From: Gammaproteobacteria bacterium CG11_big_fil_rev_8_21_14_0_20_46_22
GTDB taxonomy: Bacteria > Pseudomonadota > Gammaproteobacteria > UBA12402
Assembly (NCBI GenBank): GCA_002796245.1
Contig: PCWT01000048.1
Span: 5,790-69,789, forward strand
Direction of reading: 5' to 3'
DNA length: 64,000 nt
Numbering within the stretch: position 1 is the stretch's first letter; each line of letters opens with the position of its first letter. Positions 2,156 through 24,520 of the stretch are shown in pieces. The notes beneath the pieces were generated by a model. The model saw nothing but the letters and a program-made list of their open reading frames with translations. It did no database searches and was not told the DNA's origin. A program made the position numbers and the translations under genes.

Positions 2156-2680
2156 TGAGGCATGTTGCTTCGACAGTTGCACATAACTTTCGGCGCTGTA
2201 GCGCAAGAATGTTTTTTCCTGATCTGTCAGCGGGCGGATCTTTTTGGCGGGAGCGCCCACGTACAAAAAACCGGTCTCTAAGACTTTGCCCGGCGGCACC
2301 AAGCTTGCCGCACCCAACATGACCTCGTCTTCAAGTACTGCGCCATCAAGAACGGTGGAGCCCATGCCAATTAGGCAGCGATGACCAATAGTGCAGGCAT
2401 GCAAAATCACACGATGCCCAACAGTGACATCATCGCCAATCTGTAAAGCTTGCCCGCCAGGTACATACTCGCTGTCATGTGTCACATGCAGCACACTGCC
2501 ATCTTGAATATTGCTTCGCGCACCGATATGAATACTGTGCACGTCACCACGGATCACCGTCATAGGCCAAATAGAAGAGTCCTCACCGATCACGACATTA
2601 CCCAAAACCAAGCTGGCCTCATCAATATACGCCGTGATAGCGATGCGTGGTGTTTTACCATCAAAAGAGCGAATTGTCAT
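2150..2680 (-). CDS. Gamma-carbonic-anhydrase-like hexapeptide-repeat protein (YrdA/PaaY family)
   Basis: Strong similarity to E. coli YrdA, with the motifs IGARTNIQDGSxLHVTH and GHxVxLHxCTIG. Its start abuts the tdh stop. Confidence 0.8.
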   Translation of the reverse strand: MTIRSFDGKTPRIAITAYIDEASLVLGNVVIGEDSSIWPMTVIRGDVHSIHIGARSNIQDGSVLHVTHDSEYVPGGQALQIGDDVTVGHRVILHACTIGHRCLIGMGSTVLDGAVLEDEVMLGAASLVPPGKVLETGFLYVGAPAKKIRPLTDQEKTFLRYSAESYVQLSKQHASK

Positions 2681-2681
2681 A

Positions 2682-3719
2682 TCAAGTCCAGTCTAAAATA
2701 ATCTTACCCGACTTGCCTGAACGCATAGTTTCAAAGGCTGTTTGGAAATCGTCAATCGAAAAATGGTGCGTAATGATCGGCGAAACATCCAACCCGCTTT
2801 GCAGCATGCTGGACATTTTGTACCAAGTCTCAAACATTTCTCGACCGTAAATACCTTTCAGCACTAATCCCTTCATAATAAAGGCATTCCAGTTAAACCG
2901 CGTGTCTTCGGGCAAAAAACCAAGGTTGGCAATGCGGCCGCCGTGATTCATGTGTGCCACCATATCATTAAAAGCGTGTGCATTACCTGACATTTCCAAA
3001 CCCACATCAAAACCTTCCGTCATGCCTAAGGTTTTCATCACTTCAGTCAAAGATGTTTCACGCGTGTCGACAGCCAGCGTTGCGCCTAAGGTTTTGGCTA
3101 AAGCTAAGCGGTAAGGATTGATATCCGTGACTACGACATATCGGGCGCCTGCAAATTTTGCAATCGCTGCAGCCATGCAACCAATGGGGCCAGCACCCGT
3201 GATTAAAACATCTTCACCCACCAAATCGAAGGACAGGGCCGTATGGACCGCATTACCTAAAGGGTCCATGATCGACGCAACTTGATTTGGAATACTGTCC
3301 GGCAGTTTAAACGCATTGTAAGCAGGAATCACCAAGTATTCAGCAAAGGCGCCATCGCGATTGACACCAACACCCGCTGTGTTTCGGCATAAATGCACGC
3401 GACCCGCGCGACAGTTTCGGCAGTGCCCGCAGGTGATATGGCCCTCGCCTGAAACACGGTCACCTTCTTTAAACCCTTTAACTTCTGAACCCATGCCCAC
3501 AATGCGGCCTGCAAACTCATGGCCTGCGGTAATAGGAATCGGCAGGGTTTTTTGCGCCCAGTCATCCCAATTATAAATATGAATATCGGTTCCACAGATG
3601 GCTGTTGTTTCAATTTGAATTAACACATCATTCGGGCCAGGTGTAGGCTTTGGAATATCTTCCAACCAGATACCGACTTCTTTTTTAATTTTTCGTAAGG
3701 CTTTCATATTAAATAACAC
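2682..3719 (-). CDS. tdh: L-threonine 3-dehydrogenase
   Basis: Zinc-ADH fold, near-identical to E. coli Tdh motifs ([28 protein letters not shown]). Confidence 0.93.
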
Positions 3720-4899
3720 TCAATTGTTTGCCGACTTTTTCGAAAGCAGCAATCGCTTTATCTAAATCCGCACGCGTTAAACCAGCCGACATTTGTGTAC
3801 GAATACGGGCTTTTTCACGAGGCACCACCGGGAATGAAAAGGCGATAACATACACGCCTTCTTTTAACATTGCATCGGCAAAGGTTTTAGCAAGCTTAGC
3901 ATCACCCAGCATGACGGGAATAATGGCATGATGGCCCGGCACCAGCTCAAACCCCAATGCTTGCATTTTTTCTCTGAAATATTGGCTGTTTTCACGCAAT
4001 CTTTGACGATACTCTGGTTTTTCTTTAAGCAACTCAATCGCGCGCACCGAAGCTTTCGCAATCATCGGGGCGAGTGAATTTGAAAACAAATACGGGCGTG
4101 AACGCTCGCGAAGCCAGGTAATAATGTCTTTTCGGCCGCTGGTGTAACCGCCGGATGCGCCACCTAAAGCTTTGCCCAGTGTGCCAGTAATAATATCGAC
4201 CCGACCTTCAACACCACAATACTCAGGCGTACCGCGCCCATGTTCGCCCACAAAACCCACAGCATGTGAATCATCAACCATGACTAATGCGTTGTACTTA
4301 TCGGCCAAATCACAAATTGATTTAAGGTCAGCCAAGATACCATCCATAGAAAAAACACCGTCTGTCACAATCAACTTAAAACGCGCGTCAGCCGCCGCTT
4401 TTAACTGCTCTTCAAGATCAGCCATATTGTTATTTTTGTAGCGAAAACGCTGCGCTTTACATAAGCGCACGCCATCAATAATACTCGCGTGATTCAATTC
4501 ATCGCTGATGATTGCATCTTCAGGACCCAACAATGTTTCAAACAATCCTGTGTTCGCATCAAAGCACGATGAATATAAAATGGTATCTTCAGTCCCCAAA
4601 AACTCACTGATCATCTTTTCTAATGTTTTGTGAACACTTTGCGTGCCACAAATAAAACGCACAGAAGCCATGCCATAGCCATAGTGGTCTAAAGCCTGTT
4701 TTGCGGCTTCAATGAGAGCAGGATCATCAGCAAGCCCAAGATAATTATTCGCACAAAGGTTTAGTACCTTCTCGCCCGAGTCGACCTTAATAGAGGCGCT
4801 CTGTGGTGAAGTAATCACTCGTTCGCCCTTATACAAGCCAACTTCTTTCAAGCCTTCAATTTCGGTATGTAGGTGTTTTAAAAACTCGGTGTTACTCAT
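3709..4899 (-). CDS. kbl: 2-amino-3-ketobutyrate CoA ligase (glycine C-acetyltransferase)
   Basis: High similarity to E. coli Kbl along its length ([32 protein letters not shown]). The start ATG is nested in the last codons of the upstream tfuA-like gene. Confidence 0.93.
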
Positions 4900-6136
4900 G
4901 CTGCTCTCCTATGAGATATTGATAGGCCTGAAGGACCCAACGACGGCTGTCCATAATAATAGGAATATCCAACAAATCAAAGCCATTTGTAAGCACTGCA
5001 TATTCAAATAGTGACAAGTACTCAACAAACAGGGGCAAAGCCTGCGTTTCATCCAAATCATTATTCTTAAGCCACTGCAGCGTGGCCTCACGCTGTTTAA
5101 GGCCGTGGCGTTTTCTAAAGCGATTAAAAAAAGCTTGAGCCATACCTGGCGAAAGACTTACCTTGATATCACGATAATAGCTATAAATAAGCGCAAACGC
5201 TTTTGCGATCAACCTAGCCTCAACACCCTTCTCAACATCACGATATAAAGCATAAAATTTTTCAAATTGTGTTTCAGCGTATTCTGTCGATAAAGTTGAA
5301 AAACCCTGAGACCGAATCTCATGTTCGATCTGCAGCACTTTTGCCAAATCAATCAATCGCTGTTTTTGTGCATCTGAACACCCGCACAAAGCGCGCTCAG
5401 TCTCAGGGAGCCAATCATAGTTATTGTCAAACGGCCGACTTATGGCTTCACGGTAAATACGCTTAGTAAAGTAGCTCGGCAGCGCCTGCGGCTTTTTTAT
5501 TTTTGAGCGGATGGGGGTTTGATGAGCAAGCGAAAGTGCCGCTCGCGCATCACAGGCCTTTTGATCGACAGTGTACTTTTTAAAAATCTCGACCGAGAGC
5601 CCAAGCGATGTTAACGTTTGATACACATCACGCTGGTAATACGGTTGTTGCTTAAGCGCATCAATAACCTTCTGAGCATCAATCATCTCAATAGCTTGTT
5701 TTTTTATGGCGTTTTTTAGCGTAGCCCGCACATTTACCAAGGGGACAACCCTTGATTGAAACCCAGCTTCCTGGCTTGAATGCGGCAACGAAACCTCGTC
5801 GTCACCATCAATAAAGCCTGAGTGATACCATTGAAAAATCTCGCCCACACCACGCATACCCTCATCACAGAGCTCAGCAGCACGCAAAGCACCCATGCTC
5901 GCTGCCCCCCAAACTTCAACACCCGAGTCCAGGGCGAATAAAATTTCTTTATGCCATACTGAAGCAGTTTGCTCGAACAAGCCATCAATAATAATTAAAC
6001 GCTTCGGCGATAAGCTCATCAGTTTAAACACATCACCGCAACGTACAGGGTCTGAAAAACAGGCTTCTGGTAAGCATTCTTTTGCCTCCTGCCGGGAAAG
6101 TGTTGGGCCCAAAAAAACGATCGTATCTGTACTCAT
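4892..6136 (-). CDS. tfuA: TfuA-like protein (YcaO partner), N-terminal TfuA domain plus a ~200-aa C-terminal extension
   Basis: N-terminal TfuA-domain hallmarks: [46 protein letters not shown]. Its start overlaps the ycaO stop by 4 nt (ATGA). Confidence 0.8.
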
Positions 6137-7233
6137 ACACTAACTCCTGGTGCAATAAGCTGCACAACAGCAATCGCATCATCGGGTTTTGTGTAAACTA
6201 AACGGTAAATATCGTGTGAAATTGAGGCAAGCAAATGTGTCTGCATCGCTTTAAACGATTGAAACAGCATTGATGATTGTGTTGTGTAATCGATTGTTGC
6301 TTTAAAATTAATCGATTGATTTTTCTGCTCATACAGGGTGTCGACCACATCATCTCGCGAACCTGAAATCAAAGTTAATCGCGACTGAACAGCCTCTGTG
6401 AGCGCACGACTCAGGGCGATATCTTTATTGACGTGTGCACCATAGCCCGAAAAAACACCAACACGTCGAAAAAAGCGCTCGTCAAACAGCGTGGCCATAT
6501 AGCTTGGCATCGTGTTTGCAGTAGAGCTTACATCCACTATGACAAGCGACAGACCCTTTTCCTGCAAAGCCTTTATTCGATCGCGAAGAGGTGGGCAATC
6601 AATAGTATTCAATTTAATCGCACGATGCGCTTTTTCTGCATCAGAGAGACGGTGATAACGATAGGCATTCATACGTTCAATGATTTCAAGTAAAGCATGA
6701 CAACTTGCCTCTTCTAGATTATTACCCGAGGCCAAACCCGTCGTTGTTCGCTTAAAGAGCGTGTTTTCCAGCGTGCATTCGGTTAAATCAAATGAAATGG
6801 CTGCGCGAGGAATATAATACACCTCACCGCTCAAACAATGTCTTAGCGCTGTCCAGGCAATTGGCAAGTTCAAAAGATCATCGTGTTTAAATGTGCCTTG
6901 CTGAAAAACATCAGGACTAATGCAAGCATATTCATGGCTAAGCGCATGGTAGCTTCCAACAAGGTCAGACGGTGTTTGCTCAGCGTAGTAGTGTTCAATC
7001 GCTTCCATGTACGCGCTACACATCGACAACTCAGGCGTTAAACCTTTACCCTGCGAGGTGCTTAAATTTTTAGAGCGCGGGCGAATACAAGTATGAACCG
7101 GCAAACCCACATCATCCAAACCGGTTAAATCCGCAATACGTGAGATGCCCGCCTGTTTTGCATACGGCTTTAAACAGGCCAAGGTTTCTTCTGGGGTTCT
7201 GGCACGCAATGTCCCGCCAACATCAATAATCAC
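6133..7233 (-). CDS. ycaO: YcaO-domain protein of the TfuA-associated type (GTG start)
   Basis: N-terminus GTLRARTPEETL...GISRIADLTGLDDVGLPV...IRP is typical of TfuA-associated YcaO proteins. The ORF is about 366 aa. It is translationally coupled to the upstream E1 gene and the downstream tfuA. Confidence 0.8.
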   Translation of the reverse strand: MIIDVGGTLRARTPEETLACLKPYAKQAGISRIADLTGLDDVGLPVHTCIRPRSKNLSTSQGKGLTPELSMCSAYMEAIEHYYAEQTPSDLVGSYHALSHEYACISPDVFQQGTFKHDDLLNLPIAWTALRHCLSGEVYYIPRAAISFDLTECTLENTLFKRTTTGLASGNNLEEASCHALLEIIERMNAYRYHRLSDAEKAHRAIKLNTIDCPPLRDRIKALQEKGLSLVIVDVSSTANTMPSYMATLFDERFFRRVGVFSGYGAHVNKDIALSRALTEAVQSRLTLISGSRDDVVDTLYEQKNQSINFKATIDYTTQSSMLFQSFKAMQTHLLASISHDIYRLVYTKPDDAIAVVQLIAPGVSV

Positions 7234-8339
7234 TAATAACTCGACTTATGAGGCTCAAAGTCTTTTATCCAAGCGATAATGCCACCTTGTAAATTATACA
7301 CATCTTTAAGTCCGCGATTTTTCAGCCAGTACACTGCCTGTGCAGAGCGCCCCCCTGAGCGGCAATATATGACGAGTGGTGACTTGAATTCGCTGACATC
7401 CATTTCTCTAATGTCCGCTAAAGGCACGGCTTTATCGCCATCGATTTGACAAATGTCTCGCTCCCAAGCTTCACGCACATCGATTAAAGTAAAAGCTTTC
7501 CCTGAGTCAAACCAGCTTTTCAAAGCTTCACACGTCAACACAGGAATGGCATTGGCTTTCTTGGGGGCTTCAGATAAATCTTTCAATGGTTTATGTAACT
7601 GACAAGTTGGGCAATCTTTTCGTGTGATGATAGGATGACGCTTCATCTGCATATTCAAAAGATCCAACTGAACAAAACTATTGTTGAGTTTTTCTGGCAA
7701 ATTAAGCAAGTGTTTGATCGCCTCGGTGGCAGCCAATGTACCCAAAACGCCCGGCACCGTACCCAATACACCGGCTTGTGCACAATTAGGTATGACACCT
7801 TCTGGTGGCGGGTTGGGGTATAAACAACGGTAACAGGGCGAGCTTTGATGACTTAGAGCGATCAACTGACCCGAAAACTGATAAATGCTGGCTGAAATTA
7901 AGGGTATCTTTTTTTGTGCGCAGGCATCAGCAACCAAGTAGCGTGTTTCATAATTATCGCTACCATCAATCACCAGGTCATAACCGTCTAACAGAACATC
8001 AATATTCGCTAAACTTAAGCGATCATTAATTGGAACAAGCTCACAAGCCGTATTAAGCGCAAACAGCTTATCGCGTGCGCACTCAACTTTTGCACGCCCT
8101 TCATCCCTCTCTGAGAACAACACCTGCCGCTGTAAGTTTGATAGCTCGACACTATCGTCATCAATAAACGCAAGCTTACCTACGCCACAAGCCGCTAAAT
8201 ATAATAACGCCGGTGAGCCAATCCCGCCGGCGCCAATACAAAGTATCGAGGATTGTTTTAATGTTTCCTGACCGGCTCGACCTATTTTCTCTACAGAGAA
8301 GTGCCGCGCATAACGAAGGTTTTCAGCTTGAGTGAACAT
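7233..8339 (-). CDS. MoeB/ThiF-type E1-like adenylyltransferase with C-terminal rhodanese domain (MoeZ-like sulfur-carrier activase)
   Basis: Rossmann motif GAGGIGS, CxxC...CxxC zinc motifs, and a C-terminal rhodanese active site CRSGGRS. Confidence 0.8.
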   Translation of the reverse strand: MFTQAENLRYARHFSVEKIGRAGQETLKQSSILCIGAGGIGSPALLYLAACGVGKLAFIDDDSVELSNLQRQVLFSERDEGRAKVECARDKLFALNTACELVPINDRLSLANIDVLLDGYDLVIDGSDNYETRYLVADACAQKKIPLISASIYQFSGQLIALSHQSSPCYRCLYPNPPPEGVIPNCAQAGVLGTVPGVLGTLAATEAIKHLLNLPEKLNNSFVQLDLLNMQMKRHPIITRKDCPTCQLHKPLKDLSEAPKKANAIPVLTCEALKSWFDSGKAFTLIDVREAWERDICQIDGDKAVPLADIREMDVSEFKSPLVIYCRSGGRSAQAVYWLKNRGLKDVYNLQGGIIAWIKDFEPHKSSY

Positions 8340-8602
8340 TATCCACCCGAAACCGATGTGATAAGCTCAAGCTCATCACCCGAGCTAAACGTGACATCAT
8401 CTAAATCGTCGACTAACGGCTTGCCATTGTGGTACACATTTAAAAACCCGTGAAGCTCATCGCCTTGATACATGACACGGAACAAAGCCGGCTCATGCTC
8501 ATGAAGGTAAGCCTTCAAGCTTGACATTGAGTTCACATCTAATGTCTTCTCACGCCAGTGGCTAAAACGCTCTAGTGCTTCGGGTAATAATAACTTGATC
8601 AT
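8339..8602 (-). CDS. MoaD/ThiS-family beta-grasp sulfur-carrier protein ending in Gly-Gly
   Basis: The 87-aa product has the N-terminus MIKLLL and the C-terminus SGDELELITSVSGG-stop, which is the MoaD/ThiS signature. Its Shine-Dalgarno sequence AAGGAGG lies in the last codons of the upstream methyltransferase, and its stop overlaps the E1 start. Confidence 0.65.
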   Translation of the reverse strand: MIKLLLPEALERFSHWREKTLDVNSMSSLKAYLHEHEPALFRVMYQGDELHGFLNVYHNGKPLVDDLDDVTFSSGDELELITSVSGG

Positions 8603-9271
8603 TCAAACCTCCTTTATGGCGAACGTTAAGCCATCGCCAATTGGCAAAATGACAGTCTTTAAGCCGGGGTGCTGAGCCAAGGCTGTGTTACACGCCAGTA
8701 TATTTTTTAGCAAGGTATTGGGTTTGGCTTGACTGATCACCTCACCTTTCCACAAAGTATTATCCAAAAGTAAAACTCCACCCCTGGGTAACAAGTCAAA
8801 GCACGCTTCTGCGTAATACAAGTATTTTGACTTATTCGCGTCGATAAAGCACAGGTCAAACCGCTGCTGATCTTGCTTTAACTGCAGCAAAGAAGCTCCA
8901 GCTTCACCTTCTAGGCAGGTAATTTTATTCGCCATGCCAGCCTTTTCCCAAAACGGCCGACCAAAATCAGGCATTTCAGTGTCAATGTCACAAGTGATAA
9001 TTTCACCGTTCACAGGCAAGGCCATAGCCATGGCCAGGGTCGAAAAACCTGTGAAGGTGCCAAGCTCTAAGACGCGCTGTGCCCCAGAAAGCTTAATCAG
9101 CATTTGTAAAAAAGCGGCTAAGTCCATGCTGGATTGCATCTGCCCTTTCGGCAAAGAAGCTGTTTCCGCATGAAGTTCGAGTAAAATCGGATCCAGCGGC
9201 GTCATGTGTGCTTCTAAGTAGCCTTGAAGGCCGTCGGGTAAAAGGTGGTTTTGCGTGCTCATAGCGCTCAT
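8603..9271 (-). CDS. Class I SAM-dependent, cation-dependent O-methyltransferase (caffeoyl-CoA OMT / catechol-OMT / TrmR-like family)
   Basis: SAM-binding motif LELGTFTGFS. Metal-binding residues in IDANK and LLLDNTLW are typical of the Methyltransf_3 family. Confidence 0.75.
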   Translation of the reverse strand: MSAMSTQNHLLPDGLQGYLEAHMTPLDPILLELHAETASLPKGQMQSSMDLAAFLQMLIKLSGAQRVLELGTFTGFSTLAMAMALPVNGEIITCDIDTEMPDFGRPFWEKAGMANKITCLEGEAGASLLQLKQDQQRFDLCFIDANKSKYLYYAEACFDLLPRGGVLLLDNTLWKGEVISQAKPNTLLKNILACNTALAQHPGLKTVILPIGDGLTFAIKEV

Positions 9272-9353
9272 AATATCATGCTGGAATCCCTGATAAAAGC
9301 GGCTTTAGAGGCGTGTGTGAATATGTTAGCATCACTCAAAATGAGGATGCACG

Positions 9354-11342
9354 ATGTTAGAAATTTTACCTAAATTCAGTGAGTTAAAAACTCAAACCCT
9401 AGAAGAAACGCTCAACACGCTCATCAAATCCGCTAAAACCGAGATTGAAAAAGCCATACCCCAAAAAGATCTTGGCTTGCTACAGACGATTGAAGACAAG
9501 CAAGAAATGATTAATCGTTACTTCGCCCCCATCTCTGCCTTAAATGCCGGCAAAAGCAGCCCTGAGTTATCCGCAGTCTACCAACACTGTTTAACCACCT
9601 TAAGCCATTTCGGGACAGAGCTTTTACACCATCGTGATCTATTTGAAGCACTGGCCTCAATCGATGAAAACACGCTTAACGAAACAGAAAAAGCCTGCCT
9701 TGCTTATCACCTGCGCGACTTTAAATTAGAAGGCGTTAATCTCGATCAAGGCACTCAAGCTCGCCTAAAAGTGATTAATGAGCGCTTGGCGACACTGTGC
9801 CATCAATTTGAAGAAAACGTTCGACTCAGCACAGAGGCTTTTTGTTTACACATCGAAAGCAAAGAAAAGCTTAGCGGCCTGCCCGCATCCAGTCTTGCAC
9901 TGTGTGCAGAATTCGCAAAACAACAAGGCAAGCCGGGTTACTGTGTCAGCCTAGATTTCCCCATTTATTACGCCATTATGCAGTTCGCTGATAACCGTGA
10001 ATTAAGAAAAACGCTGTATGATGCTTACTCAACACGAGCCTCAAACTTAAGTGCTCACAAAGATCATGACAACGGTTCATTAATGATAGAAATTTTAAAC
10101 CTTCGCCAAGAAATGGCCAGATTATTAGGCTTTAAAGACTACCCAGAATATAGCCTTAAGACCAAGATGGCGAAAGACGCAGATGAAGTCTTAAGCTTTT
10201 TAACACGCTTGTGTAAAGCGGTTAAGCCCAAAGCGCAAGAAGAGCTAGAAACGCTTAAAGTCTTCGCAAAAAAACACGGCCTTGAAACATTGGAAGCACA
10301 CGACATCCCCTATTATGCTGAAAAGCTCAAACAATCGCGCTTTAGTTTTTCAAGCGAAGAGGTACGTCAATATTTTCCCGCTCAAAAAGTGGTTAAAGGG
10401 GTATTTAAAACCGTCGGCCGATTGTTTGCGCTCGACTTTCAAGCTGTCGAACACGCTGACTGTATGGATGAAAGTGTAACCCTATATGAAGTCAAAAGCC
10501 TCTCTAGCGAAACGCTTGCTTTTCTGTATGTGGATCTTTACACGCGACAGGGCAAGCGGCAGGGCGCCTGGATGGCCGAGTGCCATAACCGCCACGTTTT
10601 TTCCGATGGAAGCCTGCAAAAACCCGTGGCGTTTTTAAACTGTAACTTCAACCCCGCAAGCAACAAGACCCCGGCCTTGTTAACCCATGACGACATAACA
10701 ACCTTATTTCACGAACTGGGTCATTGCTTACATCATCTATTGACCGAGGTAAACCTCGCGAGTGTCTCAGGCATTAACAATGTGGCTTGGGATGCGGTTG
10801 AGCTGCCCAGTCAGTTTCTCGAAAACTGGGCCTGGGATTTCACAGTACTCACTGAACTTGCCGAACACATTGAAACGGGTGAAAGCTTGCCTCAAACATT
10901 ATTTGAGAAAATGCAGGCCGCCAAACATTTTAACAACGGTTTATTTCTCGCGCGCCAGCTAGAGTTCGCGTGTTTTGACTTTAATCTGCATCTTCAGCAA
11001 AGCATCAAAACCGAAGCAGATATTCAAGCCGTACTCGATGATGCAAGAGCAAGCATTGCCGTGGTTAAACCGCCTGAAACCAACCGCTTTCAAAACAGCT
11101 TTAGCCATATTTTTGCCGGGGGTTATGCGGCAGCTTACTACAGCTATCTTTGGGCAGAAGCTTTATCAGCTGATGCTTTCTCACTCTTTGAAGAAAGCGA
11201 TTTATTCAATAAAACACTCAGCCAGCGCTACCGAAAAACCATTTTGGCTCAAGGTGCGGTCAAGCCCATGAGCGAATTATTGAAAGCCTACTTACAACGA
11301 GAAACTAAACCTGAAGCACTACTTAAAGCTTATGGGCTATAA
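9354..11342 (+). CDS. M3-family zinc oligopeptidase (oligopeptidase A / Dcp-like)
   Basis: HELGHCLHH zinc motif. The 662-aa length is typical of OpdA/Dcp. A GAGGA Shine-Dalgarno sequence sits 6 nt upstream. Confidence 0.85.
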   Translation: MLEILPKFSELKTQTLEETLNTLIKSAKTEIEKAIPQKDLGLLQTIEDKQEMINRYFAPISALNAGKSSPELSAVYQHCLTTLSHFGTELLHHRDLFEALASIDENTLNETEKACLAYHLRDFKLEGVNLDQGTQARLKVINERLATLCHQFEENVRLSTEAFCLHIESKEKLSGLPASSLALCAEFAKQQGKPGYCVSLDFPIYYAIMQFADNRELRKTLYDAYSTRASNLSAHKDHDNGSLMIEILNLRQEMARLLGFKDYPEYSLKTKMAKDADEVLSFLTRLCKAVKPKAQEELETLKVFAKKHGLETLEAHDIPYYAEKLKQSRFSFSSEEVRQYFPAQKVVKGVFKTVGRLFALDFQAVEHADCMDESVTLYEVKSLSSETLAFLYVDLYTRQGKRQGAWMAECHNRHVFSDGSLQKPVAFLNCNFNPASNKTPALLTHDDITTLFHELGHCLHHLLTEVNLASVSGINNVAWDAVELPSQFLENWAWDFTVLTELAEHIETGESLPQTLFEKMQAAKHFNNGLFLARQLEFACFDFNLHLQQSIKTEADIQAVLDDARASIAVVKPPETNRFQNSFSHIFAGGYAAAYYSYLWAEALSADAFSLFEESDLFNKTLSQRYRKTILAQGAVKPMSELLKAYLQRETKPEALLKAYGL

Positions 11343-11379: not shown

Positions 11380-13389
11380 TTATGCCCGTTTCGGGTTAAG
11401 TGTTCGGTAAAACCAACGGCAAACTAACACTAACATCACAACAGACAAAATACTGGCAATCGGTGTAAAGCCATCTGGCACAATTTTTAGCGCATCAGAC
11501 GTTTTCTCAATCGCGAATGGAACAGCCAAAACCACGCCGATCAATGATGAGCCTGCCACCATACCGCAAGCAATCAACAAAGCATTATGCAGTCGCAAGC
11601 GAATACTGTGGTCTTCGTAAAAAGCTTGACGACCAACGCGTTTTTTCAGCGATTTGCTCGATAGATACGCCAGAATACCGCCAACCACCATGGGCCAAGA
11701 CGACGCCATCGGTAAGTAAATACCCAAGCCCATCGCCAAAACCGGAAAACTTAAACCCCGTTGTCTTGTGCGAATATTCACAATAATGGCTAAGATACCA
11801 ACACCCACGCCAATGAGAATCATTGACCACGGTAAATTGTGATTAAACACGCCTTTAACGACCGCGGCCATCATGGCCGCTTGTGGGGCAGCCAGCATTT
11901 GTGAGTGCGGCATGCCGGCATGGGGGAAAACACCACCGATGCCGTAAGCTTGAAACAGCAACTCTAAGGTTGGGCCGACAACCAGGGCTGCAATAACAAC
12001 ACCAATAAAAAGCACAACTTCTTGCTTCCACGGCGTTGCACCAACCAACTGACCTGACTTCATGTCTTGACTGGAATCATTGGCAATGGGGATAGCGCAG
12101 CCCAGCAAGGTATTCACTAACAACACAAAACCCGCCAAATGTAGGCCGCGACTTTGAAGCACAGCCGGTTCAAAGAATGAAAAGAACAGCAGCGTAATCA
12201 AGGAAAATAAGATCACGCCGGCTAAGATAAAGCCTGAACCCGGACAATTCGTCGCACCCACAAGGCCAGCAAAATAAGCCGCGAGCGAGGCGAACAAAAA
12301 CCCAAAAACCATCGCAAAAATAATGGCTAGCAAGCAAAATGACAAGGTAAAAAACGTTGAGCTGCCAGGAACATACAAGTGAAAAACATACAAAAAGAAA
12401 AGATAGCCAAAGACTAAGACGCCCAAAGAAAATAAGGCCAGCGTCTTTAGTCGCATATCCTGCTCGGTACGCAATGTTGTCGTCTCATCAAGGCCTCTGC
12501 TCGCTTTAATCGACAAAAAGATACCCTTGAAAATGGGCCCGACCAAACTAATTAACGTCCACAGACCGCCGACTAACATTTCGCCGACACCGATATAGCG
12601 AATATGGTCTGACCATAACATGCCTGCTGCTGTGACGGCATCCACACCATGTGGCACACCAAACATATACCCAACGACCGGCACACCCATTAGCCAACCA
12701 ATTAACATACCCACAAACATTGAAATGCCCACGGCTGGTCCAATAATGTAGCCTGCGCCTAATAGTGCAGGAGAAAAACCAAAACCAAAACCAAACAAAG
12801 AACCGGCTTTATGAAACCAAACCGATGTGGCGTCTGACAACACCTGAAAACCGTCCTGCAAAAAACTGATCAGAGCACCCACAAGGCCACCCAAAACTAA
12901 AGGTTTCGCGTTAGATGAGGTTTCGGCACTGGCCTTGAGCACTTCAGCAATGGCCGTACCTTCAGGAAAACGAAGATCTTTGTGGTCCATCATCACACGG
13001 CGAATCAATACTGTTGTGACAACGCCGAGAAAGCCGCCCAGCACAGTCAGAACAAAGACCTTACCAAAATCAAAACCATGCCAAAGATTTAAAATTAACA
13101 TCGCCGGTGTAATGAACGCGACACCGGCAACCACCGCTTCACCCACAGAAGCCATCGTTTGGACGATATTGTTCTCTAACACGTTTGAATGTTTAAACCA
13201 ACGCAAAACAGCCATTGCGATAATGGCTGCAGGGATGGAAGCAGATACGGTCGCTCCGACTTTCAAACCTAAGTAAGCGTTAGAAGCACACAGCAGTACC
13301 GTGAGTAAAATACCTAATAAAATCGCTTTTAAGGTTAGCTCGGGCAGCTTCTTCTCAGGACCTATAAAAGGTTCAAATTTATTATCCAA
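11380..13389 (-). CDS. Large polytopic membrane protein, probably an OPT-family oligopeptide transporter
   Basis: The 669-aa product is highly hydrophobic with many predicted TM segments. It lies convergent to the M3 peptidase gene. The family assignment is from overall architecture only. Confidence 0.5.
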   Translation of the reverse strand: MDNKFEPFIGPEKKLPELTLKAILLGILLTVLLCASNAYLGLKVGATVSASIPAAIIAMAVLRWFKHSNVLENNIVQTMASVGEAVVAGVAFITPAMLILNLWHGFDFGKVFVLTVLGGFLGVVTTVLIRRVMMDHKDLRFPEGTAIAEVLKASAETSSNAKPLVLGGLVGALISFLQDGFQVLSDATSVWFHKAGSLFGFGFGFSPALLGAGYIIGPAVGISMFVGMLIGWLMGVPVVGYMFGVPHGVDAVTAAGMLWSDHIRYIGVGEMLVGGLWTLISLVGPIFKGIFLSIKASRGLDETTTLRTEQDMRLKTLALFSLGVLVFGYLFFLYVFHLYVPGSSTFFTLSFCLLAIIFAMVFGFLFASLAAYFAGLVGATNCPGSGFILAGVILFSLITLLFFSFFEPAVLQSRGLHLAGFVLLVNTLLGCAIPIANDSSQDMKSGQLVGATPWKQEVVLFIGVVIAALVVGPTLELLFQAYGIGGVFPHAGMPHSQMLAAPQAAMMAAVVKGVFNHNLPWSMILIGVGVGILAIIVNIRTRQRGLSFPVLAMGLGIYLPMASSWPMVVGGILAYLSSKSLKKRVGRQAFYEDHSIRLRLHNALLIACGMVAGSSLIGVVLAVPFAIEKTSDALKIVPDGFTPIASILSVVMLVLVCRWFYRTLNPKRA

Positions 13390-19569: not shown

Positions 19570-19600
19570 ATATGGGGTTGAGGTCAAGAAATTTCAAGGC
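19570..19600 (-). promoter_or_regulatory. Sigma32-type heat-shock promoter for groESL
   Basis: On the minus strand: GGCCTTGAAA, then a 14-nt spacer, then CCCCATAT. This matches the sigma32 consensus CCCTTGAA-N13-15-CCCCATNT. The -35 element overlaps the stop codon of the upstream GT-C gene. Confidence 0.55.
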
Positions 19601-21105
19601 CTGCGGCGATAAACCAAAAAATCTTTTGTTTGGTCGGACAAATAATAACCAGCCGCGAATTCACGGTACCTTGGAAAACGGCGCAGTATGTCATTGTAGT
19701 GTCGTTTCCTAAAGAAAATGATCAGTTTAGGGCGCGTACTTTCCAGGGAATCAAAAAACAAATTTTCGGCTTGCCTCACCCAGTAGTGCTGTCTAAGCGT
19801 CAACTTACCTTTAGCTTCAAGCTTTGGTATCGCCGGCATAAATAGCAGCGAGGGTGTTTTGATCGCTGAGTAAAGCCCAGGGTAATTGTTCCAAAGCACT
19901 TCATTTAAACCAATGTTCTCATCCGCCATCAACACAGCACCCTGCTCAACGTGCATTTTTTTGGGTATTTTCAATAAGCGTACATATACGCTTTTATTGC
20001 TGTTGGCTAAGAAAACACCGGTGTAGTTTACTTTTAGGATGACTGAAAGCACGACAGCTATCATAAAAAACAGACTAATAATCAGCATAACCGTTGATTT
20101 AAGCTCGCGCCCAAACGCAAAACCTTTCGCTTTTAAGTCGGCATAGTAATGTCCACAGGTTAAAAATAACATTGCCGTCATGAGAACAATAAAAGGATAA
20201 ATATGGTAATACCAGGCTTTGTGCTGAATAAAATATGCGCCCCATAAATAGCCTGCAGCTGCAATTAAGCAAACACGAGCAAACGGACCTTTTAGGTGGC
20301 GCAAAGCCACACAGGCGAAAAGGAACGCGGCTATCCAAGCGAGACAGGCATTGTAGGAAAGCAACAAAGTCCAACTCGCTTGCCAGAAAGGCAAATAGAG
20401 CGTTGTCACCAGCGGCAACATTTTCGTGTAGTACTCTGGTGTAAAATAAGCGATCAAAACCAGGTAAAGGCAGCCCAACACAAAAAAGCTAACCAGCTCG
20501 ACGCTCAAAAGCACCCGCAATCTTCTGGCGCGAACAGCCGCATAAAATTCAACCAACAATAAAGGCAGCAAAAAGTAAGGCTTAAGAAAAAAACCTAAGG
20601 CAGCAAAGCCAATCACAAGTCCTCGCATCAAGGGGCTTACACTTTTCCCCGTTAACGCGACCGAGCGCATACAAAAATACGGCACAGAAAAAACGATCGC
20701 GAAACATTCTCGCTCACCAAAAATCGTGCCGCTGAGCAAAAAATACCCCACACACAAACCCAAGATAATCGCCTGATATTCTTGAATCGACTTGAGCGAT
20801 TGCTTAATAAAGCGCGCCGAAAGCCACAAAGAGGCAAGGCCGACCAAGTAGTAAAAAAGCAAAAGACTCGCGTGCAAAGAGAGCTGAAAAAGTTTGCTCA
20901 GACCTATAATAAGAAAACCCAGCCAAAGGATTAAAGGTGGGTTCGTTTCAGCAAAGTCGTAATAGTAACGCCCGCCATGAAGCATACTCTGCCCACAATG
21001 CAAAAGCCAAGAAGCGTCCCAGTTCATTAAGCTGTAGGTTTGTATGAAAGTGCTCGCTATGACAATCAAGACGATCCAGGGCAAAATCCGCAATAGACTC
21101 ATCAC
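19594..21105 (-). CDS. GT-C-fold membrane glycosyltransferase (ArnT/PMT_2-like, GT39/GT83 type)
   Basis: The 503-aa product has about 11 predicted TM helices. The first loop carries YDFAETNPPLILW, which is close to the ArnT/PMT motif around EKPPL. Its start overlaps the GT2 stop by 4 nt. Confidence 0.6.
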   Translation of the reverse strand: MMSLLRILPWIVLIVIASTFIQTYSLMNWDASWLLHCGQSMLHGGRYYYDFAETNPPLILWLGFLIIGLSKLFQLSLHASLLLFYYLVGLASLWLSARFIKQSLKSIQEYQAIILGLCVGYFLLSGTIFGERECFAIVFSVPYFCMRSVALTGKSVSPLMRGLVIGFAALGFFLKPYFLLPLLLVEFYAAVRARRLRVLLSVELVSFFVLGCLYLVLIAYFTPEYYTKMLPLVTTLYLPFWQASWTLLLSYNACLAWIAAFLFACVALRHLKGPFARVCLIAAAGYLWGAYFIQHKAWYYHIYPFIVLMTAMLFLTCGHYYADLKAKGFAFGRELKSTVMLIISLFFMIAVVLSVILKVNYTGVFLANSNKSVYVRLLKIPKKMHVEQGAVLMADENIGLNEVLWNNYPGLYSAIKTPSLLFMPAIPKLEAKGKLTLRQHYWVRQAENLFFDSLESTRPKLIIFFRKRHYNDILRRFPRYREFAAGYYLSDQTKDFLVYRRRP

Positions 21106-21818
21106 CTAGGCCCAAACTTAAACATCACTAGCTTTAAAAAATGCGTAAAAAACTTAAGTATTTCACGAAAAGATAATTTACTTTTACCGTGCAAGCGATT
21201 ACCAAATTCAATGGGCACCTCCACGATCTTTGGTTTTTTAAGCTTAACCATTAGCTCAAGACCAATTTTGTAACCAATCGGGCTTAGGGTATTTTTCACA
21301 GCGGCATAGTCACTCTGACGCAAAGCAAAGAAACCCGACAAAGGATCATTAATGCGCACAAGACAACGGCCCAACTGTTTGGCAACCCAAGCATTAATAT
21401 GCCTTAGTCCGCTCCACTGTTCGTCGATTTTGGCTGAATGCACATAGCGGGAACCCAAAACCATATCCGCCCTTTCAAGTACCTCAACCAGTGCCGGAAT
21501 TTTCTCTGGCGGGTGAGAAAGATCAGCGTCCATGCACAACAGGATATCACCCAAGGCTTGATTAAAACCTTCAATCACAGAAAGGCTTAAGCTTCGATTC
21601 GCTTTTCGTACCTTAAGCTTTAACCAGGGATATTGTGCTTGTAATGATGCAACAATAACTTGTGTGTCATCCCCCGAGTCATCGTCAACCAAGATCACTT
21701 CAAAGACTGAAAACTCAGGAGCAATACTTGCCAAACGCTCACACAACGGCGAAATATTCTCTGCCTCTTGATAGCAAGGAATAATGACGGAGAGTCGCTG
21801 TTGCTTTAAATTTTTCAT
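21102..21818 (-). CDS. GT2-family polyprenol-phosphate glycosyltransferase (ArnC/DPM1-like)
   Basis: LSVIIPCYQEAENI...VILVDDDSGDDT is the GT-A DxD signature. The 238-aa size matches the ArnC/Dpm1 family. Confidence 0.8.
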   Translation of the reverse strand: MKNLKQQRLSVIIPCYQEAENISPLCERLASIAPEFSVFEVILVDDDSGDDTQVIVASLQAQYPWLKLKVRKANRSLSLSVIEGFNQALGDILLCMDADLSHPPEKIPALVEVLERADMVLGSRYVHSAKIDEQWSGLRHINAWVAKQLGRCLVRINDPLSGFFALRQSDYAAVKNTLSPIGYKIGLELMVKLKKPKIVEVPIEFGNRLHGKSKLSFREILKFFTHFLKLVMFKFGPR

Positions 21819-21840: not shown

Positions 21841-23202
21841 TTAGGATGATCCAGCGCTTATTAACATAAGAAACAAATACCACCAAGGATGATTTTTAGA
21901 CCGTGTGGCAATCATGTCCGCGTTTAAACGCACGATGATCCAATCAAAAATATAAACCGCTCGAATAAACCCCGGGTAGTCCTCCAAGCTTAAGCCGCCA
22001 GCGTTTAAAAAATGATTTAAATCATCTTGATAAATCAAGCTGCGCTCGTAACGAAAGCGTGTCGAGAATGCTTCAAGTTTTCCAGGCGCAATCAAAAACC
22101 CTTTCCTGTCAACGAGCCGAACCAAAGACGACCATGCCTGGGCTAAGTGTGTTTGAACAAAGGGCTGGGCCTTAGGAAATAATTGCTGGGTGTAGACAAG
22201 GTATAATGGCTGAAGTTTCGATAAGGGCGCTTTTTTAAGCAGCCCTTCACACTCATCAACCAATGATTGATGCACGAGATAATGCTTGGATGATGCTTTA
22301 AAGTGCTCAATGGCTTGGAGCAGCTCATCTGCCTCATTTGCACGCCCATCGTTTACATTGCTTAAAATCAACCATGCTCTAGCTAAATACTGCCAAGCCT
22401 TTTCAGCCTCAAGAACGTGCTCTTTCGCCCAATAGCTTATATGAAATTCTGCGGGCATTGCAGGGTGCTTAATCGACAGGCCCTGTGTCGCAGACAGCAA
22501 AGACAAGGTGGTCATCGCCTGAGTCATTACAGGCTTTTGAGTTTTTCTGCTCTGCTCAATATCCCCTTTTGCTAAAGTTTTGAGTAATAAAATAGCATCC
22601 TCACGTTTAAAGTCTTTAACGCCTGCTTTAAGATATTTTTTGGCTTGAGCTTTGAGCTCAGAATCACGCATTAAGCGAAGTATTTGTGCGGGTTTTCTAT
22701 CTAAGAAAGCTAACGCTTGAGTTGCGTTAATTAGTGCTCTTGAAAGCGCTGGCGATACGTTTTTTTTCGCACATTGTTCTTCAAGGTCATAACGCAAATT
22801 AACCAAGGCGATGGTGTGGGGCGTATACTGCTCATCGTGCAATAAAGCGACCTCGTCATCTCCCGTGAGCCTACCATCGTAAAAATCTTCAAAAATTCGT
22901 CCAACGCCTTTCATGCCGAAATCGCAAAGCTCGGCGGCACGCAGAGCACCCATGCTCGCGGCACCATAGACAGGAATGCCTTGGCCCATCACCCACAAAA
23001 TTTCTTTGTGCCACACACTGGCTTGCTCATAAAAATAGCCGTCGATAATCGCGATCGCTTTCGGTTTTAATCGAGCCGCTGATAACAAATCACCACAACG
23101 CACCGGTGGAAAACACAACGCACAATCTAGTATGGCTTCAACGTCTTGGTGTGCAATACTGGGCCCTGAAAAAACAATAATGTTATCGCTCAGCAAACTC
23201 AT
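21841..23202 (-). CDS. tfuA: TfuA-like protein, second paralog, with a long C-terminal extension
   Basis: [45 protein letters not shown]. It is about 50% identical to the first TfuA over the domain. The ATG chosen here lies 2 nt after the ycaO-2 stop; the track ORF runs further up to 23256. Confidence 0.75.
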   Translation of the reverse strand: MSLLSDNIIVFSGPSIAHQDVEAILDCALCFPPVRCGDLLSAARLKPKAIAIIDGYFYEQASVWHKEILWVMGQGIPVYGAASMGALRAAELCDFGMKGVGRIFEDFYDGRLTGDDEVALLHDEQYTPHTIALVNLRYDLEEQCAKKNVSPALSRALINATQALAFLDRKPAQILRLMRDSELKAQAKKYLKAGVKDFKREDAILLLKTLAKGDIEQSRKTQKPVMTQAMTTLSLLSATQGLSIKHPAMPAEFHISYWAKEHVLEAEKAWQYLARAWLILSNVNDGRANEADELLQAIEHFKASSKHYLVHQSLVDECEGLLKKAPLSKLQPLYLVYTQQLFPKAQPFVQTHLAQAWSSLVRLVDRKGFLIAPGKLEAFSTRFRYERSLIYQDDLNHFLNAGGLSLEDYPGFIRAVYIFDWIIVRLNADMIATRSKNHPWWYLFLMLISAGSS

Positions 23203-23204
23203 TT

Positions 23205-24314
23205 TTAACGCTGGCTCCCAAAAACAAAACCCGGTATTAAGACACTGACAACCCAAATGCCCAAAGCATCAAGCTGCCGATTCATAAAGATCAACTCGTC
23301 AAAACCAGCTTTAGACAGCAACGTCGTTAGCTCAGAAAAGCCGGCCTCATCTTGAGAGAAACCCTGTGTTTCTTCGATAGACTGAAAGGACAAGGTGCCA
23401 AGCTGTGAAACCGCTTGACCACCCTGAACTGCTTGAAAGCCTTTTTGATAATAGTGAGGGAAAATATCATCGCGGCTACCACTGGTGATCGCAACCTTTG
23501 CTTGAATCGCTTCTGTCAGGGATCGCATAAGCGCGTGATTTCGAGTAAAACTTGCACCACTACCCGAAAAACAATCCTGTCGCCCTAAGCCTTCAGAACT
23601 TATCGTACAATAAAAGCTTGGCACCCCGGCTATGCAGTGAATATCCCAAACACGAACCTGAAAGCCTTTAGAAGCACATCGGTTTATCCAATGACATAAA
23701 GCGGGATCATCAATGGTGCTAATATCAAGCTCATATTGTCTTTGTAATTTAGGTAGGCGAGCATTCCACGCCGTAAGCGCATGGCGCTCAATGGCTTCAA
23801 ACATGGCATGGCAGGCGGCAAAGTACCGTGTTTCACCACCACCCATTCCATTACTGCTGATGTGAAAATAACTAAAATCAGACCGCTCAACACTAGAGTC
23901 TATATCAAACACATTTTGGGGCACAAAAAGAGCTTGTGTGTTTTTTCGATGAAGGCGCTCAGCCAAAACCCAAGCGAGAGGTTGATCATGAATATTACAG
24001 AGAAAAGCACTCTGGCAAAATAAAGCTGGATCGACCAAGGCATGTTCATCTTTTAGCGCATTGTAAGCCCCATGAAGCAAGGCTTTGGGAGGGTTCTCTA
24101 AGCAATCGCTCTCAACAGCCTCCATCAATGCGGACAATTTCGCTTGTTCAGCTGTTTGCCCTTTTCCCAAAGCTACCGATAAATGCTTCGCTTGTGGGCG
24201 TATGGCTGAAAAAACGGGCAGACCGATAGGGTCTAGGCGGGTCAAGTCAGCCAGCCTTGTTACACCAAACGTTTGCCTTTGCTCAAGCAACTTTGTTAAA
24301 CAAGGCTGGCTCAA
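23205..24314 (-). CDS. ycaO: YcaO-domain protein of the TfuA-associated type, second paralog (TTG start)
   Basis: GVTRLADLTRLDPIGLPVFSAIRP and overall collinearity with YcaO-1. The N-terminus is about 15 aa shorter than YcaO-1. The start codon is TTG. Confidence 0.75.
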   Translation of the reverse strand: MSQPCLTKLLEQRQTFGVTRLADLTRLDPIGLPVFSAIRPQAKHLSVALGKGQTAEQAKLSALMEAVESDCLENPPKALLHGAYNALKDEHALVDPALFCQSAFLCNIHDQPLAWVLAERLHRKNTQALFVPQNVFDIDSSVERSDFSYFHISSNGMGGGETRYFAACHAMFEAIERHALTAWNARLPKLQRQYELDISTIDDPALCHWINRCASKGFQVRVWDIHCIAGVPSFYCTISSEGLGRQDCFSGSGASFTRNHALMRSLTEAIQAKVAITSGSRDDIFPHYYQKGFQAVQGGQAVSQLGTLSFQSIEETQGFSQDEAGFSELTTLLSKAGFDELIFMNRQLDALGIWVVSVLIPGFVFGSQR

Positions 24315-24322
24315 AATAGTGA

Positions 24323-24445
24323 TTAGCTCAATTGATCCACTAAATCATTACTGGTAAAGACAGGACCAATAACGGGCGTACTAAAATGCACGACATCCTC
24401 TGCTAGATCTTGTGTTAATGCGCAATTAAACGATTGTGTTTTCAT
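24323..24445 (-). CDS. Unannotated 40-codon ORF (MKTQSFNCALTQDLAEDVVHFSTPVIGPVFTSNDLVDQLS) directly upstream of ycaO-2; candidate precursor peptide
   Basis: ATG preceded by AAGGAG at 8-nt spacing. Its stop lies 8 nt before the ycaO-2 start. It is absent from the ORF track only because it falls below the 60-aa cutoff. No homology is recognised. Confidence 0.3.
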   Translation of the reverse strand: MKTQSFNCALTQDLAEDVVHFSTPVIGPVFTSNDLVDQLS

Positions 24446-24520
24446 GGGATAAACTCCTTTAGTATAGAACCGTATTATTTTTATGCGCGTATTCTAGCAA
24501 AAACCCGATGAAAATCGCAA

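Follow-up and report, generated by a model that had tools for sequence, protein, structure and literature searches.

A YcaO-TfuA operon with its own sulfur carrier and E1-rhodanese, and a second YcaO-TfuA locus beside a candidate precursor peptide, in an uncultured gammaproteobacterium

Two YcaO-TfuA loci in one stretch of DNA

We analyzed a 64,000-nucleotide stretch of contig PCWT01000048.1 from Gammaproteobacteria bacterium CG11_big_fil_rev_8_21_14_0_20_46_22 (the window, in whose coordinates all positions are given unless another locus is named), and describe here a set of genes predicted to supply sulfur to, and carry out, backbone thioamidation. Five open reading frames (ORFs) on the minus strand, each abutting or overlapping the next, form what we call operon 1: an O-methyltransferase (8603–9271; 222 aa), which is the first gene; a beta-grasp sulfur carrier of the CysO/MoaD/SAMP1-like type with a Gly-Gly C-terminus (8339–8602; 87 aa); a MoeZ/Uba4-type E1 enzyme with a C-terminal rhodanese domain (7233–8339; 368 aa); a TfuA-associated, thioamide-type YcaO (YcaO-1; 6133–7233; 366 aa); and a long TfuA (TfuA-1; 4892–6136; 414 aa) in which the TfuA fold (residues ~1–210) is followed by a helical C-terminal extension (~211–414). 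The carrier ATG comes immediately after the methyltransferase stop codon TGA (8603/8602), the carrier and E1 genes share one base of TAA and ATG (TAATG at 8339), the E1 and ycaO genes share one base of TAG and a GTG start (TAGTG, 7233), and the adjacent tfuA is translationally coupled to ycaO through an ATGA overlap (6133–6136). The ATG of the downstream gene kbl (4899) lies 8 nt within the end of tfuA, whose stop codon occupies 4892–4894. An initial annotation of this DNA had described five head-to-tail genes joined in this way; its coordinates and every junction were reproduced exactly, and the gene identities that it assigned were upheld by profile hidden Markov model (HMM) searches against Pfam and NCBIfam.

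A tblastn search of the window with the proteins of this module revealed a second YcaO-TfuA pair, also on the minus strand, ~15 kb from operon 1. Here a 456-aa protein without family annotation (U456; 24521–25891; translation probably begins at the second Met, ~25867) is followed by an ORF for a candidate 40-aa precursor peptide, MKTQSFNCALTQDLAEDVVHFSTPVIGPVFTSNDLVDQLS (24323–24445), then by YcaO-2 (23205–24314; 369 aa, 32% identical to YcaO-1) and by a long TfuA (TfuA-2; 21841–23202, the ORF extending to 23256 and the probable ATG being at 23202). The peptide ORF has a good ribosome-binding site (AAGGAG, 8 nt upstream) and stops 8 nt before YcaO-2. The view that no precursor peptide is linked to the module is therefore not supported, since the window holds a second YcaO-TfuA pair directly after a 40-aa ORF that has homologues in five related clusters.

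YcaO-1 matched the Pfam YcaO family (PF02624) with 170.2 bits (9.4e-50; cut-off 25.7). Against TIGR03266, the NCBIfam model of the YcaO for McrA-glycine thioamidation, it scored 144.2 bits (4.9e-42), which does not reach the cut-off of 365; judged from sequence, YcaO-1 is related to the McrA-type YcaO without being its orthologue. The closest solved structure was MJ1094 (6pe3/6peu; 6.8e-19), which we take to be the thioamide-forming YcaO of M. jannaschii. Residues S73/E77/E80, E183/E186/R187, R276/E280 and R293–D295 of YcaO-1 were invariant across 28 homologues and aligned with the MJ1094 motifs; presumably, they correspond to the ATP-site residues of E. coli YcaO. YcaO-2 (Pfam YcaO: 175.3 bits, 2.7e-51; tblastn to YcaO-1: 3.6e-45) keeps the equivalents of all of them. 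Loss of the conserved ATP/Mg-binding residues had been raised as a sign that YcaO-1 might be inactive, and the acidic/basic core turned out to be retained in both YcaOs.

TfuA-1 is a member of its family both by domain (Pfam PF07812; 6.1e-42) and by fold, since it matches structure 6xp8 in sequence and in fold; against the NCBIfam McrA-type TfuA model NF033432 it stayed under the equivalog cut-off. The SMGALRA motif (S80), which also aligns with 6xp8, and D112-D113 were invariant in 46 long TfuAs. The C-terminal extension of ~200 residues is absent from the 217-residue 6xp8; searches of the TfuA extensions against Pfam and NCBIfam returned no match even at E ≤ 10, and no known fold relative was found for this extra domain. 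TfuA-2 (Pfam TfuA: 4.4e-40), separated from YcaO-2 by 2 nt, fits the long-TfuA profile over positions 3–431 and carries an extension of the same family.

The carrier ends in ...SVSGG, and this GG is invariant in nine syntenic homologues. Taken alone, the protein narrowly missed the cut-off of Pfam ThiS (21.1 bits against 22.5), and its best NCBIfam match was SAMP1 (6.4e-6). Its membership of the ThiS/MoaD/CysO carriers is established through the family: a profile of the nine syntenic carriers matched the structures 4n6e_B (a CysO-type ThiS/MoaD protein; 5e-14), 3dwg_C (6.5e-14; presumably M. tuberculosis CysO), a SAMP1 homologue (8.5e-13) and a MoaD-related protein (2.4e-9). The E1-rhodanese matched Pfam ThiF with 253.9 bits (1.5e-75) and Pfam Rhodanese with 43.9 bits (3.4e-11); the NCBIfam model of the SAMP-activating E1 UbaA gave 1e-78, and the nearest structures were Uba4 (1e-45), ThiF (2.5e-45) and MoeB (1.2e-44), to each of which it is about as near (~1e-45) as they are among themselves. 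Its scores with the NCBIfam MoeB/MoeZ models (353/308 bits) were under the equivalog cut-offs (for MoeZ, NF005902, 308 bits against 647), so that by sequence it has the architecture of MoeZ but is not a MoeZ orthologue. The translation contains the Arg finger (RYARH), GAGGIGS, DGSDN, two CxxC pairs for Zn (CYRC and CPTC) and NCAQAG, as well as a rhodanese loop, CRSGGR, with its active-site Cys. Because these E1 motifs and the rhodanese loop are present, the enzyme cannot be counted among the degenerate, azoline-type 'docking' E1s.

U456 gave no match to Pfam or NCBIfam even at E ≤ 10. Its family comprises 1,537 representatives at 50% identity, all of ~430–470 aa and all without a Pfam or NCBIfam match; in metagenomes it occurs mostly without YcaO, often by a POT/PTR2 peptide transporter and sometimes as tandem copies. 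The AlphaFold2 model of U456 contains a beta-barrel resembling cyclic nucleotide monophosphate (cNMP)-binding domains. A profile comparison (hhalign) of U456 with a neighbouring protein of a related cluster that has such domains (locus L012, see below) showed no relation, so the resemblance is at the level of the fold only.

Related loci, candidate precursors and flanking genes

For comparison, we used 80 genome loci chosen by YcaO similarity, together with contigs encoding individual homologues, all mapped with the window proteins, both as tblastn queries and as HMMs. In a neighbour-joining tree the gammaproteobacterial YcaOs formed one clade, whose members come from metagenome-assembled genomes labelled Francisellaceae, Coxiellaceae, Legionellaceae/Legionellales and Thiotrichales. 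An E1(-rhodanese) gene lay within a few kb of YcaO-TfuA in ~13 of the 24 clade loci (L001–L003, L006–L010, L012, L014, L016, L021 and L025), as compared to 2 of ~58 other YcaO-TfuA loci; in the linked loci it was mostly directly upstream of YcaO-TfuA, and divergent in two. A GG-ending ORF of ~90 aa stood beside the E1 or the YcaO in ~12 related loci. Two JGI contigs, of which one is plasmid-like, have the same gene set, as do L100 and L102 among the metagenome loci. The initial annotation had proposed a dedicated relay from E1-rhodanese through a thiocarboxylated carrier to TfuA and YcaO, and this gains support from the many related loci, of several arrangements, in which carrier and E1 adjoin YcaO-TfuA. 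As to its five-gene set, carrier, E1, YcaO and TfuA are linked in ~13/24 loci, and the methyltransferase is not conserved, being linked only in L001, a 76%-identical relative. In L012, a class-V aminotransferase resembling cysteine desulfurases (8906–10000, plus strand) is encoded between carrier and YcaO, and a protein of 667 aa that combines two cNMP-binding domains, a PqqD domain (similar to the RRE, the recognition element of RiPPs, peptides made by ribosomes and modified after translation) and a Peptidase_M50 domain is encoded next to the E1-rhodanese (5373–7376, minus strand). This neighbour was the only source of a PqqD domain near the module.

Short ORFs that could encode precursors were found next to the modification genes at locus 2 of the window and at eight related loci, and they fall into two peptide families. 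Family 1 comprises the window peptide and ORFs of L007, L009, L011, L015 and L016, in each case after U456 and before the carrier or the YcaO, in clusters that also carry a carrier and/or an E1 or U456. Its motif is h-h-G-[LI]-[SA]-[GQN]-[PA]-h-x4-[ED], and a loose form of this motif had seven matches in the six-frame translations of all loci, five of them the syntenic ORFs of these five relatives. An extra copy in L011, left out when the HMM was built, was recovered by the precursor HMM at 1.2e-3. Family 2, marked by ...PYSM[NT]K[IV]TLIP..., is unrelated to family 1 and follows U456 directly in three metagenome loci that also have carrier/E1/YcaO (L089, 1521–1655; L100, ~11410; L102, 5356–5520). 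The candidate precursor of L007 (4300–4515) contains the core motif twice, FVGLAGLVLVEN ... LMGLAQPLAALVEN, and is possibly a two-core precursor.

With the precursor HMM, we detected no further copy either in the 64-kb window, the surroundings of operon 1 included, or in 56 metagenome U456 loci. An all-vs-all comparison of the small ORFs downstream of U456 yielded one real family; the other groups look spurious, being frames inside neighbouring genes and one CsrA-like ORF. There was no conserved family among the small ORFs upstream of the YcaOs of subclade B, to which YcaO-1 belongs (L003–L006, L025, L083, L084, L001 and L002), nor among those downstream of U456 in metagenome loci without YcaO. 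YcaO-2 sits in the precursor-rich subclade A of the tree, and since the two YcaOs are thus in different subclades they do not stem from a recent duplication.

In many relatives, U456 homologues adjoin YcaO and a long TfuA, along with carrier and E1, and the arrangement of these clusters varies. L016 has a minus-strand E1-rhodanese followed by U456, peptide, carrier, YcaO, TfuA and a minus-strand POT transporter; L007 and L009 have U456, peptide, carrier, a minus-strand POT transporter and, farther on, E1-rhodanese, YcaO and TfuA; L003 has carrier, E1-rhodanese, YcaO and TfuA, with U456 and a major facilitator superfamily (MFS) gene on the minus strand. One JGI contig encodes a 467-aa protein, a 95-aa protein, E1-rhodanese, YcaO, TfuA and a minus-strand PTR2 transporter. 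The other (P0243) encodes carrier, E1-rhodanese, U456, an unknown protein of 1339 aa, a 40-aa product of a called gene, YcaO, a 522-aa TfuA, a minus-strand PTR2 transporter and a helix-turn-helix protein, and additionally ParA, ParB and Rep3, suggesting that its cluster is a plasmid-borne, mobile version.

The second locus of the window differs in content from that of a relative. In L085 (5740–5830), from the same sample as L001, only 25 nt lie between a U456 gene (84% identical) and the gene of a GT2 glycosyltransferase. Because U456 is there followed directly by GT2, the precursor-YcaO-2-TfuA-2 genes of the window (21841–24445, minus strand) can be regarded as a 2.7-kb cassette that is either present or absent. 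Between TfuA-2 and groES-groEL (19594–21818, minus strand) lie the genes for a glycosyltransferase of the GT2 type that is related to polyprenyl-phosphate sugar transferases and for a polytopic membrane protein of 503 aa that matched nothing in Pfam or NCBIfam even at E ≤ 10. Since they are kept by U456 in the relative, we place both genes outside the cassette, and a functional link to the module is not supported, GT2 directly following U456 where the cassette is absent. GC and GC3 content gave no compositional sign of recent acquisition for either locus, the cassette being like its flanks.

The methyltransferase of operon 1 is a class I, cation-dependent enzyme (Pfam Methyltransf_3, PF01596: 201.7 bits, 1.1e-59) whose metal-binding D...DN motifs can be read from its sequence as FIDAN and LLLDNTLW. 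Its nearest structures were catechol/hydroxycinnamate O-methyltransferases (3cbg, 1e-44; 5lhm, 7e-39), followed by the O-methyltransferase 3tr6 (9e-37) and CCoAOMT (1sui, 1.5e-35). The TrmR/YrrM structures 5zw3 (3e-15) and 8k1f (1e-13) were ~30 orders of magnitude weaker than 3cbg, and the enzyme is thus not similar to TrmR, the tRNA mo5U34 enzyme. The enzyme had been counted as part of the module and assigned to the CCoAOMT/TrmR family; given its linkage in L001 only and its far greater closeness to catechol-type enzymes than to TrmR, we consider it a co-transcribed and, at best, accessory tailoring enzyme. Elsewhere, L015 has an unrelated COMT-like O-methyltransferase (Methyltransf_2 plus Dimerisation domain; 2668–3678, minus strand) divergent from U456, a weak hint that O-methylation is a recurrent accessory, and L020 has a GNAT acetyltransferase downstream of TfuA (12507–13052, plus strand).

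Upstream of operon 1, an 82-bp divergent intergenic region (9272–9353) separates the methyltransferase gene from prlC, an oligopeptidase A-like M3 peptidase gene (top match, under the equivalog cut-off). Because the five overlapping genes are preceded by no other non-coding gap, we presume from the layout alone that it holds the operon promoter. A consensus scan found no sigma-70-like site in it, the sigma-70 and terminator scans gave site counts at background level, and Rfam at the gathering threshold had no match in the whole window. Downstream are kbl (glycine C-acetyltransferase) and tdh (threonine dehydrogenase), both with equivalog-level NCBIfam matches (2682–4899, minus strand; the overlap is 8 nt between kbl and the end of tfuA, and 11 nt between tdh and the end of kbl). 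Given these overlaps, the two genes of threonine-to-glycine catabolism are probably co-transcribed with operon 1. Among the relatives, they follow tfuA only in L002, of the same lineage as the window, and with the order kept only within that lineage a functional link to thioamidation is not supported.

Genes for peptide handling recur near the clusters (window, 9354–11342, plus strand, and 11380–13389, minus strand; L005, 13410–15503; L007, 4780–6306). Operon 1 is flanked by prlC and an OPT oligopeptide transporter both in the window and in L001, L005 has prlC and an M50 peptidase downstream of TfuA, and POT/PTR2 transporters occur within or beside at least ten related clusters. These genes could reflect export or processing of a product, or mere synteny.

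A proposed sulfur relay for thioamidation and its alternatives

We propose that operon 1 encodes a line of sulfur delivery together with the enzyme pair that it serves for backbone thioamidation, and that the operon forms one half of a split RiPP-like system whose product is likely a thioamidated short peptide; we give this reading a probability of roughly 0.65. As far as the mechanism of operon 1 is concerned, a sulfur relay plus thioamidation, we consider the odds good. Following the characterised families, the E1 domain would adenylate the C-terminal Gly-Gly of the 87-aa carrier, and a cysteine desulfurase whose gene lies elsewhere would load the fused rhodanese with a persulfide, with which this domain would turn the carrier acyl-adenylate into a thiocarboxylate. 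The thiocarboxylated carrier would be bound and hydrolysed by TfuA beside YcaO, which, with ATP, would O-phosphorylate a backbone amide of the substrate so that the oxygen is replaced by sulfur. In related Gammaproteobacteria the parts make up a single cluster, [POT transporter]-U456-precursor-carrier-E1-rhodanese-YcaO-long TfuA. Here they are split, with carrier, E1, YcaO-1 and TfuA-1 at 4892–8602 and U456, the 40-aa peptide, YcaO-2 and TfuA-2 at 21841–25891. There is only one carrier/E1 pair in the 64-kb window, which therefore probably feeds both YcaO-TfuA pairs. The syntenic families of short ORFs, together with the gene set of the relatives, are hallmarks of a RiPP-like cluster. Pfam and NCBIfam searches detected no RRE or PqqD domain in any window protein, the E1 included, and leader recognition might fall to the TfuA extension or to U456. 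YcaO-1 itself may modify the peptide of the second locus at a second site, an unlinked peptide or a protein. We would rather bet against the 40-aa peptide as its substrate, while keeping it as a tentative candidate, and for YcaO-1 specifically the fallback of the initial annotation, a substrate encoded elsewhere, is possible.

Several observations weigh against this proposal. No precursor-like ORF was found in or beside operon 1, nor in most of the YcaO-1 subclade (L004, L005, L006, L083 and L084). In the closest relative, operon 1 (L001) and U456 (L085/L086) seem to be retained without the precursor-YcaO-2-TfuA-2 cassette; that these loci belong to one organism is deduced from their common sample, and if L001 and L085 are one organism, then operon 1 can exist without the 40-aa peptide. 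The window peptide shows no more than a moderate fit to the family motif and was itself among the sequences from which the scoring HMM was built. In metagenomes U456 is mostly found without YcaO, often with nothing more than a POT transporter. The NCBIfam equivalog cut-offs for MoeZ, the McrA-type YcaO and the McrA-type TfuA were not reached, and the individual relay steps are carried over from characterised families.

The strongest alternative, which we consider unlikely, is that YcaO-1 and TfuA-1 use a private sulfur relay to thioamidate a cellular protein, with U456 as a possible target, and that the second cassette is an independent peptide system. This would agree with the lack of a small ORF in or next to operon 1 and in most subclade-B loci, with the setting of the operon among the housekeeping genes prlC, kbl, tdh and priA, and with the close relative that retains operon 1 without the precursor cassette. 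The top NCBIfam matches were moreover the McrA-type YcaO and TfuA models, and protein thioamidation has precedents in McrA of methanogens and in uL16 of E. coli, the latter modified by a YcaO of the Pseudomonadota (PMC13063428). Yet related clusters with the same carrier/E1/YcaO/long-TfuA set do have short precursor-like ORFs. The uL16-type YcaOs, moreover, never adjoin TfuA; their model NF040716 matched YcaO-1 at only 9.5e-14 (50.7 bits against a cut-off of 700), and YcaO-1, with an isoelectric point of 6.2, is not markedly acidic, unlike the uL16-modifying group. Should a protein target nevertheless exist in this uncultured, Legionellales-like lineage, the system would join those of McrA and uL16 as the third for protein thioamidation and would be the first to encode its full sulfur supply in cis.

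Carrier and E1-rhodanese could also be ordinary genes of molybdenum cofactor (MoaD/MoeB) or cysteine (CysO/MoeZ) biosynthesis that merely adjoin ycaO-tfuA, as might be thought from the MoeB/MoeZ models that lead the E1 family matches and from the CysO-type and MoaD-related structures nearest to the carrier. We consider this improbable. The codons of the carrier/E1 pair overlap with ycaO on one side and abut the methyltransferase gene on the other, every equivalog cut-off was missed, and the linkage recurs in ~13 loci of varied orders and orientations, including a plasmid-like contig. In the window, carrier and E1 are flanked by the methyltransferase gene, ycaO, prlC and kbl, with no moaA, moaC or moaE, and the 20 annotated neighbours in ten related loci included neither moa genes nor a cysteine synthase of the CysM type. 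A chance association with cofactor genes had been put forward as the observation that would overturn the relay; with no moa neighbour in the ten loci and the linkage to ycaO recurrent, it did not hold, and the relay reading therefore stands.

Two further alternatives are very improbable. The E1 might have no catalysis of its own and only dock to YcaO, as happens in azoline cyclodehydratases, so that azolines rather than thioamides are formed; E1-like and Ocin-ThiF partners of YcaO are indeed well known (PMC6511847, PMC5589413) and some candidate cores contain Ser, Thr or Cys, but this E1 keeps its nucleotide-binding, Arg-finger, Asp and Zn-Cys4 motifs and a fused rhodanese with the active-site Cys, has no detected RRE/PqqD domain, and occurs with a GG-terminated carrier at its side and with TfuA. 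Just as remote is a ubiquitin-like conjugation or tRNA-thiolation pathway (SAMP/Urm1/TtuB-like) with a TrmR-type methyltransferase, for which the SAMP1 match of the carrier, the UbaA match of the E1 and the inclusion of TrmR in the Methyltransf_3 family would speak, and against which stand the lack of a TtuA/NcsA-type ATPase or JAMM protease in operon 1, the methyltransferase that is so much nearer to catechol enzymes, and conserved neighbours that are YcaO and TfuA with no tRNA enzymes.

In aerobic bacteria, the route by which sulfide equivalents get to the YcaOs that form thioamides is understood only in part. With carrier, E1-rhodanese, TfuA and YcaO in one operon, the window offers four defined proteins with which the full relay could be reconstituted in vitro, and its two diverged YcaO-TfuA pairs, single carrier/E1 pair and a relative without one cassette amount to a natural experiment on relay sharing.

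Comparison with known thioamidation and sulfur-carrier systems

PMC8939145 and PMC13063428 cite Liu et al. (2021) for the finding that TfuA hydrolyses thiocarboxylated ThiS and raises the substrate affinity of YcaO. An in-operon sulfur relay had been called a departure from the usual picture of YcaO-TfuA, and this we have to correct: Nayak et al. (2017; PMC5589413) already reported thiF, sufS, moaD, moaE, moeB and genes with rhodanese domains near archaeal ycaO-tfuA, so a linked sulfur relay is not unprecedented. According to Malit et al. (2021; PMC8120280), Proteobacteria hold most predicted TfuA-YcaO biosynthetic gene clusters, and the characterised products are all actinobacterial. According to Rice et al. 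(2026; PMC13063428), E. coli YcaO thioamidates uL16, uL16-type YcaOs are never near TfuA, and the donor pathway in E. coli is unresolved. The literature that we searched contained nothing joining TfuA to Legionella-, Coxiella- or Francisella-type bacteria and nothing describing U456 or the two precursor motifs, and as far as this searchable literature goes, the RiPP-like cluster family that we see in bacteria resembling Legionellales, Coxiellaceae and Francisellaceae appears to be undescribed. Tiarin/trifolitoxin clusters, which occur in Legionella, belong to another system that has TfxB/C dehydrogenases and lacks TfuA.

The archaeal McrA thioglycine system resembles operon 1 in its YcaO and TfuA families, in the order of ycaO and an overlapping tfuA, in providing the closest solved relatives (MJ1094 and 6xp8), in sulfur genes that are sometimes nearby (PMC5589413) and in a TfuA that acts on a thiocarboxylated carrier. 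The window system differs in that it is bacterial, has no methyl-coenzyme M reductase (MCR) and misses the TIGR03266 and NF033432 cut-offs; its TfuA has the extension of ~200 residues, its carrier is CysO/MoaD-like and not ThiS-like, and its relatives come with precursor ORFs. With the clusters of thioamidated RiPPs (thioamitides/thioviridamide, thiovarsolins and thiopeptin), locus 2 and the relatives share a YcaO-TfuA pair by a short precursor ORF, a transporter and occasional tailoring enzymes, whereas the carrier and E1-rhodanese, U456, the POT transporter (in the relatives) and the new precursor motifs set the window system and its relatives apart.

E. coli YcaO, a YcaO of the Pseudomonadota that thioamidates the backbone of uL16 without a linked precursor, is a precedent for the alternative in which YcaO-1 would act on a protein; the E. 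coli enzyme, however, is longer, very acidic, of another YcaO type and without TfuA, and the proposed relay of the window is in cis. Mycobacterial CysO/MoeZ (MoeZR) and eukaryotic Urm1/Uba4 are alike in pairing a GG-ending beta-grasp carrier with an E1-rhodanese to form a thiocarboxylate, but in our proposal the acceptor would be an amide activated by YcaO and reached via TfuA, in place of O-phosphoserine/CysM or tRNA; in comparison to CysO/MoeZ, the window also has no adjacent cysM or mec, and the MoeZ cut-off was missed (308 vs. 647 bits). Compared with these systems, the TfuA-YcaO thioamidation chemistry appears to be known and predictable from the families, and the in-cis CysO/MoeZ-like relay, the long TfuA, the U456 partner and the precursor motifs appear to be new.

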